Of a stretch of DNA of 64,000 nt, positions 48,014-49,806 are shown piece by piece; position 1 is the stretch's first letter; every line of letters starts with the position of its first letter. The position numbers and the translations under genes are program-made. The notes beneath the pieces are model-generated. The model had not been told where the DNA came from and did not search any database. It saw nothing but the letters and a program-made list of their open reading frames with translations. This DNA comes from Gammaproteobacteria bacterium (GTDB lineage: Bacteria > Pseudomonadota > Gammaproteobacteria > Eutrophobiales > Eutrophobiaceae), in contig JBBDSH010000081.1 of NCBI GenBank assembly GCA_040905045.1, positions 18,919 to 82,918 on the forward strand. The letters run 5' to 3'.

Positions 48014-49494
48014 CGGACATACAACTGGTCGATGTTTCCATACGCGACGGCAACCAGAGCCTGTGGAGCGCCACCGGCCTGAGCACGCGGCAGATCCTGC
48101 AGATCGCACCGGTGGTCAACCGTGTCGGGTTCAAGTGCCTGGACTTCACCTCCAGTACCCACATGGCCGTGGCCGTGCGCTATTTCAGGGAAGATCCCTG
48201 GGAGCGTATCCGCCTCATGCACGCCGCCTGTCCCGATACGCCCCTGCAGTTGATTACTACCGGCTTCCGCTTCATCTCCTGGGAAACGGCGGACTATGAT
48301 TTCATGCGTCTGGTTTACCGGACACTGATGAAGAACGGCATCGGCCGTTTCATCCTGCTGGATCCCATGCACGACATGGACGCCCTGCTGGCCGGCGCGC
48401 GCATTATCAAGGAGGAAGGCGACGCCGACGTCATGGGCGCCCTGACCTACACCGTCAGCGATGTGCACGACGATCAATTCTACGCCGACTGCACCGCGCA
48501 CATGGCCGCCTCACCGGATGTGGATCTGGTCTACATCAAGGATCCGTCCGGCCTGTTGACACCGGAACGAGCACGTACCCTGGTGCCGGCGGTGCAGAAG
48601 GCCGCCGGCGACATGCCCGTTGAGATCCATTCCCACTGCACCATCGGCCTGTCCCAGTTCAATTATCTGGTCGCCGCCGACGCGGGCATCGACGTCATGC
48701 ATACGGCCGTCGGGCCGCTGGCCAACGGCAGCTCCCTGCCGCCGGCGCGGCAGACCATCGACAATCTGCGCGCCCACGGCCATCAGGTTCACGTCAATGA
48801 AAAAGCGCTGCAACAGATGACGGATTATTTCACGGCCCTGGCCCGGGCCGAGGGCCTGCCCGCCGGCATGCCCCAGGCCTACGACGCCCGCTTCATGCGC
48901 CACCAGGTGGCCGGCGGGGTTATGACCACGACGCGGCGGCAACTGGCCGAGGTGAACCTGGAACACCGCTTCGACGAAGTCATGGAAGAGGTGGAACGGG
49001 TACGCACGGAGCTGGGCTCGCCCATCATGGTGACGCCGTTCCCGCAGATCGTCTGCACCCAGGCCACCTTCAACGTTATCGGTCCGGAGCGCTACGCCAA
49101 TGTCCCGGATCAGGTAGTCCGATACGTGCTCGGCCGTTTCGGCCGGCCCACCGCGCCGGTGGACGAAAATATCCTTGATAAAATAATGTCTCTGCCGCGT
49201 ACAAAAGAAATCCAGCAAGAACCGACCAGCATGGCACTGGAAGATATCCGCAAGCAATTCTCGAAGAATCTTTCCGACGAGGAATTCCTGTTGCGTGCCG
49301 TCATGCCCCAGGAACAGGTGGACGCCATGCTCGCCAACAGTCCTTCCCGAACCCGTTACAATTCACGCCTCAGTCCCGTTGTGAAACTGATAAAGGAAGT
49401 CAGTCAGCGGCCGGGCGCCAGGGAACTCAATCTGGAAAAAGAGGGCTTCAAACTGCGCCTGCGCGGGAACGGAAAAGTAAGGAGTGAGGCGTAA
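48010..49494 (+). CDS. carboxyltransferase subunit, pyruvate carboxylase B / oxaloacetate decarboxylase alpha-like (HMGL-like TIM barrel), without a biotinyl domain
   Basis: VDVSIRDGNQSLWSA...KCLDF N-terminus typical of PycB/OadA carboxyltransferase. 494 aa with no C-terminal biotinyl domain. The last 6 codons and the stop are encoded by the repeat arm. Confidence 0.8.
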   Translation: MTDIQLVDVSIRDGNQSLWSATGLSTRQILQIAPVVNRVGFKCLDFTSSTHMAVAVRYFREDPWERIRLMHAACPDTPLQLITTGFRFISWETADYDFMRLVYRTLMKNGIGRFILLDPMHDMDALLAGARIIKEEGDADVMGALTYTVSDVHDDQFYADCTAHMAASPDVDLVYIKDPSGLLTPERARTLVPAVQKAAGDMPVEIHSHCTIGLSQFNYLVAADAGIDVMHTAVGPLANGSSLPPARQTIDNLRAHGHQVHVNEKALQQMTDYFTALARAEGLPAGMPQAYDARFMRHQVAGGVMTTTRRQLAEVNLEHRFDEVMEEVERVRTELGSPIMVTPFPQIVCTQATFNVIGPERYANVPDQVVRYVLGRFGRPTAPVDENILDKIMSLPRTKEIQQEPTSMALEDIRKQFSKNLSDEEFLLRAVMPQEQVDAMLANSPSRTRYNSRLSPVVKLIKEVSQRPGARELNLEKEGFKLRLRGNGKVRSEA

Positions 49495-49806
49495 GAAGTG
49501 AGGAGTTGGTTAACGTATCGTCATGCCGGTAAATACGGACCGTTTATCCGGCATCCAGCCGAGGTTTAACCAGGCTTTATCTCTCAGACTACGCGGAGTT
49601 CGCAGAAGCCAATAAATCGTCATCCCAGCGAATGCTGGAGGAGAAGCACAGGCACGTACCGTTAGCGGGCTAAGGATGTAATCCAGTACATTAAATTTTC
49701 CTTATTTTGATGGACCAGAGTACGGAATAAAATTGTTTACTGGATTACAGTCTGATGCGCTGGAATGACGGTTTTTACTCCTCACTCCTTACTTCTTACT
49801 CCTCAC
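49476..49806. repeat. split heptamer-hairpin element: arms separated by a 266-bp internal segment
   Basis: Left arm agtaaggagtgaggcgtaagaagtgaggagttgg (49476-49509). Right arm tactcctcactccttacttcttactcctcac (49776-49806). The arms overlap the stop codons of the convergent carboxyltransferase and MDR genes. Confidence 0.75.

Follow-up and report, generated by a model that had tools for sequence, protein, structure and literature searches.

Degenerate heptamer repeat arrays and hairpins at gene 3′ ends in an uncultured gammaproteobacterium

The 64,000-nt stretch of DNA analyzed here (hereafter, the window) stems from an uncultured gammaproteobacterium of the family Eutrophobiaceae (GenBank assembly GCA_040905045.1, contig JBBDSH010000081.1, positions 18,919 to 82,918) and carries tandem arrays of a degenerate heptamer at the 3′ ends of genes, some of which reach into the coding sequence. 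At the locus from which we started, the open reading frame (ORF) of a 494-aa carboxyltransferase (CT; oxaloacetate decarboxylase alpha- or pyruvate carboxylase B-like; 48010–49494, plus strand) converges with that of a 339-aa MDR protein of the zinc-type alcohol dehydrogenase family (49803–50822, minus strand); proteins were named by NCBIfam as in the original prediction on this DNA. Each of the two genes runs into an array. The left one (49477–49506, plus strand, GTAAGGA GTGAGGC GTAAGAA GTGAGGA GT) has its purine strand in the sense of CT, the right one (49777–49806, minus strand, GTGAGGA GTAAGAA GTAAGGA GTGAGGA GT) in that of MDR, and a core of 270 nt (49507–49776) separates them. The 3′ end of CT reads AAA GTA AGG AGT GAG GCG TAA, translated as KVRSEA*, and the left array opens with the GTA codon, at 49477. 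The final five codons (VRSEA) and the TAA (49492–49494), which is the TAA of unit 3, are array sequence; the original prediction had counted six codons, the first of which, for lysine, lies just outside. On the opposite strand, the TGA of MDR (49803–49805) and its last Val codon fall into the first unit of the right array (GTG TGA GG), and the protein ends canonically in ..GKVVISV*. The overlaps with stop codons that had been proposed for CT, MDR and LpdA, along with the adjacency of an array to the stop of a thiamine pyrophosphate (TPP)-requiring enzyme, are all present in the sequence.

What does such an array do to a reading frame that enters it? The unit is a degenerate heptamer, GTRAGRA, and on the purine strand every unit holds a stop, TAA or TGA, at offset 1. 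As 7 mod 3 is 1, each successive unit closes another frame (unit 1 frame 1, unit 2 frame 2, unit 3 frame 0); stops in all frames therefore lie within three units, and an ORF adjoining an array cannot continue beyond 21 nt. The first unit holds the stops of MDR and LpdA, and CT is in the last frame to be closed (unit 3), which gives rise to its VRSEA* tail. The complementary strand, (TCCTYAC)n, is stop-free in all frames. Were a native stop codon to be lost or displaced, the all-frame stops just downstream would limit the cost to at most ~5 residues, and only an unconstrained protein tail may drift into the array, as we infer for CT here and for the biotin carboxyl carrier protein (BCCP) of a relative described below.

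The left and right arrays of the CT/MDR locus are 83–91% complementary in several registers, and the whole CT|MDR gap (49468–49812) is predicted to fold into a nested palindrome, in which the arrays form the outer stem (−128.6 kcal/mol, z −6.6). The core contains three CGTCAT-tagged palindromes (49519–49558, 49618–49645 (+) and 49759–49773 (−)) that resemble repetitive extragenic palindromic (REP) sequences, the second and third of which pair with each other, and an inner 12-bp inverted repeat (49677–49688/49738–49749). Elsewhere in the window, this core had only chance-level short matches (≤16 nt, E ≥ 0.013). A module homologous to the CGTCAT-tagged units, GTCATGCCGG...CCGGCATC, is located 3′ of MDR in the relative L211. 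In two other relatives, a gene for a HAD-family hydrolase sits between CT and MDR (L214, 5043–5888; L217, 4611–5456), and in the homologue P0021 it is fused to CT. That the core might be a remnant of this hydrolase gene was considered and rejected, as neither the 270-nt core nor the whole window gave a tblastn match to the HAD protein.

The top-scoring tandem repeats of the window, determined by Tandem Repeats Finder (TRF) and by a unit scan, all have a period of 7, and TRF reports arrays of 4–9 copies at 24286, 37138, 39296, 46543, 49777, 59218, 63192 and 63225. The gene for the dihydrolipoyl dehydrogenase LpdA (39330–40733, minus strand; TGA at 39330–39332) is separated from that for E1-alpha by a hairpin, whose proximal arm (39293–39334, minus strand, GTGAGGA GTGAGGC GTAAGGA GTGAGGA GTGAGGC; 39296–39331 by TRF) starts at the LpdA TGA and whose distal (3′) arm on the minus-strand mRNA, purine-rich on the plus strand, spans 39236–39263. 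Another inverted pair (46499–46570, plus strand; purine arm 46499–46528, 14-nt loop, pyrimidine arm 46543–46570) begins 3–5 nt after the BCCP stop (46493–46495) and ends 52 nt before the start of the biotin carboxylase (BC) gene. Two arrays are unpaired: ~10 units of TAAGGAG type (24286–24355, minus strand) lie 1 nt after the stop (24357–24359) of the 580-aa TPP-requiring enzyme (24357–26099, minus strand), and five copies of AAGAAGT on the minus strand (ACTTCTT on plus; 37138–37182) lie 5 nt after the E1-beta stop (37188–37190). A GTGGCTS array of three units (59218–59239, plus strand) fills the 27-nt gap between the convergent ORFs 58472–59215 (+) and 59243–60076 (−). Finally, a composite pair (63190–63340, minus strand) follows 12 nt 3′ of the atpC stop (63353–63355, minus strand), with a proximal G-rich arm (63310–63340) and a distal one (63190–63256) in which GTGGCTG x5 runs into GGGGATC x4.6; the partner is partial.

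Across nine gene ends, the distance from array to stop lies between −18 and +12 nt, and at every window array the sense strand of the gene upstream is the purine- or G-rich one. Likewise, all window pairs (39236/39293, 46499/46543, 49477/49777 and 63190/63310) have the purine arm first. For the five tandem gaps of the window, placement of the array at the stop-proximal edge reached a combined p of 4e-4, rising to 0.008 when 35 nt were reserved for the start region of the next gene. Since the window proteins are full length, the abutment of arrays to genes does not amount to truncation.

Two of the hairpins are intercistronic and predicted to be stable: that between BCCP and BC (−37.7 kcal/mol, z −7.8), and that between LpdA and E1-alpha (−54.7 kcal/mol, z −8.0), which lies 43 nt before the next start and whose predicted stem has the G and A of the UGA as its first base-paired positions. 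The composite pair behind atpC (63195–63344, minus strand) folds at −48.5 kcal/mol, which exceeds shuffled sequences by a small margin only (z −1.89; 8 of 200 shuffles fold equally well or better). The unpaired arrays (24286–24355 and 37138–37182) are predicted to be unstructured. A scan of the 36–51 kb region for intrinsic terminators yielded 14 sites versus 13.3 expected from shuffles, with none at an array or array hairpin, and no T-run follows the 3′ arms of the LpdA–E1-alpha and BCCP|BC hairpins. Rfam gave no match at gathering score anywhere in the window.

Have the arrays remodelled the C-termini of the proteins next to them, as had been proposed? For CT, the tail is indeed array-encoded, yet this does not generalize: LpdA, MDR, the TPP-requiring enzyme, E1-beta and BCCP retain ancestral or family-profile ends. 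In alignments, LpdA stops after the same residue (..GRxxHx*) as 78 of 79 metagenomic relatives of 55–63% identity, and MDR ends in the same column (..GKVVIxV/I*) as 79 of 120 homologues, with another 36 being one residue longer. The metagenome scan returned no LpdA relatives above 63% identity, so that the comparison with relatives covers, for LpdA and E1-beta, the stop position. The TPP-requiring enzyme, E1-beta and BCCP align to within 1–3 positions of the ends of their family profiles, with an equal leftover in protein and profile. CT homologues, in turn, are conserved up to ..FKLRLRxNGK and then continue into unrelated tails of 0–12 residues, including homologues that are free of arrays; the closest homologues are most often 494 aa long. 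The array boundary in CT coincides with the end of conservation, but array-free homologues diverge at the same point. Among the window genes, it is the hypervariable tail of CT alone that is array-encoded. As for the odd tail VTFLTYLVNAF of the protein P0004, read-through of a pyrimidine-strand array was considered as its source and rejected, there being no array in the DNA. A clearer case of remodelling than CT is the BCCP of the relative L217, which ends in MRVK|AVNSK*, the codons GTG AAT AGT AAG TAG lying within an AGTGAAT array and hairpin stem; in array-free relatives, BCCP ends in RPKSA*, KPDPA* or KPGR*.

Comparison with relatives shows arrays being gained, kept and altered. In three CT relatives with 75–80% identity (L002, L005 and L006), no heptamer arrays occur in 8–9.5 kb, and the BCCP and BC genes overlap by ATGA (L002, 2641–2644; L005, 2626–2629; L006, 2614). 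In the window, the two genes (junction at 46493–46624) are set apart by a gap of 126 nt that holds the hairpin; for the window, L214 and L217, the hairpin-bearing gap ranges from 113 to 126 nt. The hairpin in the window versus the overlapping genes in the array-free relatives implies that the structures were gained, and translational coupling of BCCP and BC was apparently replaced by a structured spacer. At the MDR end, the three closest relatives (L209–L211; 87–89% identity, from different samples) all have GTG TGA directly followed by GTRAGGN arrays, of ~4 to 9 units that differ in order and kind. The MDR-end array is orthologous in these four genomes and changes by gain, loss and mutation of units. 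In L214 (MDR 82%), GGGGTAAGGCGTAAGGAGTGAGGGG comes immediately after the TGA of CT, then a loop and the complementary sequence, and a second pair occupies the BCCP|BC gap, while in L217 and L218, where the gene order is BCCP–BC–CT–HAD with MDR convergent, all three gaps contain a hairpin, now made of GTGAATA/TATTCAC units. The junction hairpins of L214 and L217 fold with z scores of −4.4 to −6.6 against shuffles. That the structure was kept at the same junctions and the sequence of both arms changed together speaks for a hairpin that is maintained and against one transposon having inserted repeatedly. The earlier description of the elements as expanding is borne out by these data, given the variation in unit number and kind at the MDR array among L209–L211 and the gain relative to L002, L005 and L006. 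A contig from a second assembly of the same organism, L001, considered as a source of copy-number variation, is identical to the window and breaks at the array. The identical locus is also carried by the run SRR27977661. Such breaks in or just after arrays are seen in several short-read contigs: the start of L001 corresponds to window position 46543, and L209, L210, L211 and L214 (8986–9020) end in this manner. Other purine-first repeat hairpins of different period and unit are found at gene ends of relatives (L216, 1936–2175; L213, 2185–2260; L217, 5550–5576), with repeats of the CACAGAGG type, AAAAAGGGGACGG x2 and TCCTCCGTG x3, so that the architecture is not bound to one unit.

To what extent does this arrangement occur beyond close relatives? 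One genome per species was scanned for three consecutive GTRAGGA units, a search seeded with the window's own unit, and at least 120 loci were retrieved, from Planctomycetota, Cyanobacteria, Gemmatimonadota, Bacteroidota, Clostridia, Campylobacterota, several Proteobacteria and other phyla. Cultured carriers among them are Halomonas olivaria TYRC17, Luteimonas sp. R10, Bowmanella denitrificans, Oceanisphaera litoralis and Pseudoxanthomonas gei. Among the matches listed, a sense ORF of at least 150 aa stopped within −40 to +10 nt of the purine edge at 32 of 55 loci, as opposed to 0 of 45 for antisense ORFs at the pyrimidine edge (Fisher p 1.7e-11), and inverted pairs were purine-first in 35 cases out of 35. 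The stop of a long ORF lay inside the array for 15 of 126 listed arrays from other genomes. Unrelated proteins carry array-encoded tails such as GVRSEE*, GVRSKE*, LKSEE*, ISKE* and similar; tails of the kind VRSEE*, VRSKE*, KSEE* and SKE* were seen at the loci L040, L044, L049, L096, L103, L110 and L122, from Clostridia, Syntrophaceae and others. An apparent tendency of pyrimidine-strand arrays elsewhere to hug start codons was set aside as a likely artefact, in that longest-ORF calls extend through the stop-free strand.

Taken together, the reading that we favor, and hold to be reasonably likely, is that the repeat arms are evolving GTRAGRA heptamer simple sequence repeat (SSR) arrays and hairpins at gene 3′ ends rather than the ends of a mobile element, with a function that is probably similar to that of REPs and of bacterial interspersed mosaic elements (BIMEs). 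The arrays persist at orthologous junctions and evolve by slippage and turnover of units, the two arms changing in concert, and correction of one arm by the other may proceed through quasipalindrome template switching. Most arrays are followed by a complementary one, which allows the transcript, or single-stranded DNA, to form a long and very stable hairpin at or near the stop codon. As intercistronic or 3′-terminal RNA stem-loops, these hairpins might block 3′–5′ exonucleases or attenuate read-through, and would do so in a region devoid of canonical hairpin-plus-U terminators. By analogy, protection of the upstream mRNA or attenuation of read-through of the REP/BIME type is probably the best-supported role.

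Several points weigh against this interpretation. The putative role at the RNA level is predicted from position and structure, and the arrays at 24286–24355 and 37138–37182, lacking a partner, are unable to act as hairpins. With 270 nt between them, the CT/MDR arrays could also be two independent arrays, each close to a stop, instead of one structure. Hairpin function leaves unexplained that a genome keeps to one unit type and that this type differs between genomes at the same junctions, and the gene calls underlying the cross-genome survey were crude (greedy longest ORFs). Nor does hairpin function alone account for the strict purine-first polarity, which cannot be explained by hairpin stability. 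Candidate explanations for this polarity are the all-frame stops on the purine strand, a likeness to Shine-Dalgarno (SD) and anti-SD sequences, generation of the repeats by a process linked to stop codons, a need to avoid C-rich Rho loading sites, or GGA motifs for CsrA-type proteins.

Could the arrays instead be miniature transposable elements, akin to miniature inverted-repeat transposable elements (MITEs) or REPINs, that insert with heptamer terminal inverted repeats at or into gene 3′ ends, as originally envisaged? Presence and absence do differ between relatives at the BCCP|BC junction, the same unit recurs at no fewer than five sites within 25 kb, unit types are genome-specific in the way of REP/RAYT pairs, an invariant X...X′ polarity would follow automatically from terminal inverted repeats, and REP-like CGTC palindromes are nested in one element. 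By eye, however, three pairs lack a target-site duplication (TAACGC|...|CTGTGA at 46499–46570, TTTAAGA|...|TTGATT at 39231–39334 and GGAAAA|...|ACACTA at 49477–49806), the loops of 14, 29 and 270 nt have no sequence in common, arm length and unit order are different at each site with some arrays being unpaired, and the MDR array is orthologous in four genomes, where units change in place. Furthermore, the repeat occurs in dozens of phyla, beyond the reach of any single transposon family, and no transposase turned up beside the arrays, although no search was aimed at transposases. On these grounds, mobility in the sense of a transposon is not borne out, and we regard this origin as very unlikely.

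Another possibility is that the arrays act on translation, with SD mimics and all-frame stops following the stop codon. Ribosomes that read through or shift frame would be caught there, or post-termination 30S subunits (or a GGA-binding protein such as CsrA) would be held or sequestered, and the pyrimidine arm would serve as a mask. This would fit the presence of all-frame stops on the sense strand and their absence from the complement, the strict sense orientation and stop abutment across phyla, and the predicted single-strandedness of unpaired arrays; TAAGGAG followed by TGAGGAG is also nearly identical to what we take to be the extended SD sequence TAAGGAGGTGA, and the pyrimidine arm presumably the 3′ tail of 16S rRNA, judging by the E. 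coli 16S 3′ end. Against it, units free of stops and of SD likeness, namely GTGGCTS and GGGGATC in the window and GGGAATC in Xanthomonas, take the same position and convergent polarity, which for GTGGCTS and GGGAATC weakens both the stop-codon and the SD explanation of the polarity, and reportedly one published analysis saw no evidence of selection for fail-safe extra stops in bacteria. We consider a translational role unlikely. A bolder version is that GTRAGGA arrays are cross-phylum, stop-anchored SD mimics, whose polarity and sense abutment reflect the terminating ribosome and its 16S 3′ tail or a stop-tied generation of repeats, and whose genome-specific unit (GTRAGGA in the window, GTGAATA in L217) reflects co-evolution with a trans-acting partner; in carriers, they would replace canonical terminators and translational coupling. 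This we put forward as a long shot. Lastly, the overlap might be incidental, if slippage-prone repeats pile up in non-essential intergenic DNA and deletion bias trims the spacer by the stop codon, the promoter and ribosome-binding region of the next gene being kept. The weakening of the window placement test upon reserving 35 nt (p = 0.008) points in this direction, as do the two short convergent gaps whose space the arrays simply fill, and the reported general over-representation of heptamer repeats in bacteria (PMC4692102). Left unexplained would be the orientation bias (32/55 versus 0/45) and the 35-to-0 polarity of pairs among the matches listed, as well as the co-variation of arms between genomes with hairpins kept intact, and an incidental origin thus appears quite unlikely.

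How do the arrays compare with known repeat families? Cyanobacterial STRR heptamers are comparable intergenic heptamer tandem repeats. MITEs and other small repeats that insert into gene ends, such as the Correia/NEMIS elements of Neisseria, RPE of Rickettsia and ERIC, can lie in or against ORFs and provide residues or stop codons; these are bounded by defined ends and target-site duplications and share a conserved body, features that were not found in the window arrays. A literature search for the repeat-unit strings gave nothing relevant. The closest parallel is provided by the heptameric G-rich SSRs described by Rehm et al. 2015 (PMC4692102), with GGGAATC in Xanthomonas and GGGGAYT in Nostoc: degenerate period-7 arrays of 2–26 units, mostly intergenic, at a mean of 28 nt from the upstream ORF, much nearer to it than to the downstream ORF, and near or overlapping stop codons. 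There are 70–75 convergent array pairs per genome that are capable of forming stem-loops, and at a given gene, closely related species differ in the length and sequence of the array. The window arrays share the period-7 tandem units, the stop-proximal intergenic position and the convergent pairs. Unlike those repeats, GTRAGRA lacks GGG runs and hence G-quadruplex potential, a trait that belongs to the G-rich repeats published so far and not to heptamer SSRs in general; the exception in the window is the GGGGATC array at 63225–63256, which is G-quadruplex-capable as are the Xanthomonas and Nostoc repeats. It further differs by its TAA or TGA in each unit, its SD likeness, its occurrence in many phyla and its uncultured gammaproteobacterial host.

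REPs are located less than 20 bp from ORF 3′ ends, and GTAG REPs often supply a TAG stop (Di Nocera et al. 2013, PMC3733652). As intergenic palindromes, often arranged as inverted dimers, REPs and BIMEs have been proposed to function in mRNA stabilization and termination (PMC3733652). With REPs, BIMEs and REPINs, the window arrays have in common that they are palindromic intergenic repeats at 3′ ends with a species-specific sequence. REPs, however, are single units of 20–40 bp with a fixed stem, loop and tag that are spread by RAYT transposases, whereas each arm in the window is a tandem array whose length varies and which has neither a tag nor a defined loop, and true CGTC-type units are present only as passengers in the 49507–49776 core. 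Direct TAACTGA repeats, for which a post-transcriptional role was proposed, were described in Beggiatoaceae, cyanobacteria and Bacteroidetes (MacGregor 2015, PMC4679880). They, too, are intergenic heptamers with a patchy distribution over distant phyla, and TAACTGA comprises two stop codons, but they mostly lie just 5′ of start codons, with only one indirect repeat found, whereas the window arrays are placed at stops and usually paired. In sum, the arrays show the traits of heptamer repeats except for G-quadruplex potential, and lack those of REPs, MITEs and intrinsic terminators; new are the unit, the lineage and the wide distribution, while the class of heptamer repeats near or overlapping stop codons is known.

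Where a slippage-prone repeat adjoins a gene, it can determine the stop codon and which residues come last in the protein, and the same tails then recur across unrelated proteins and phyla. Tails such as VRSEA*, VRSEE* and VRSKE* should be treated as repeat-derived by annotators and in comparisons of C-termini. The joint switch of both arms to another unit type is natural evidence that hairpins are maintained as structures, and strict purine-first polarity constitutes a simple, testable rule; both this rule and the genome-specific unit type deserve further study. On the practical side, arrays break short-read assemblies and limit the quality of metagenome-assembled genomes.

Two minor observations concern the dehydrogenase genes. 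In the usual order of 2-oxoacid and acetoin dehydrogenase clusters, E1-alpha and E1-beta precede E2 and LpdA; in the window (38211–42278, minus strand), the order is E2, LpdA, hairpin, E1-alpha, E1-beta and array. The E1-beta array is followed by a 319-nt gap, which comprises a 62-nt direct repeat (36842–36903/37076–37137, 90% identity) and a quasi-palindrome with 43-nt arms (36982–37069) that contains TGTGGGAGCGGC...GCCGCGAAT and presumably resembles Pseudomonas-type REP sequences.

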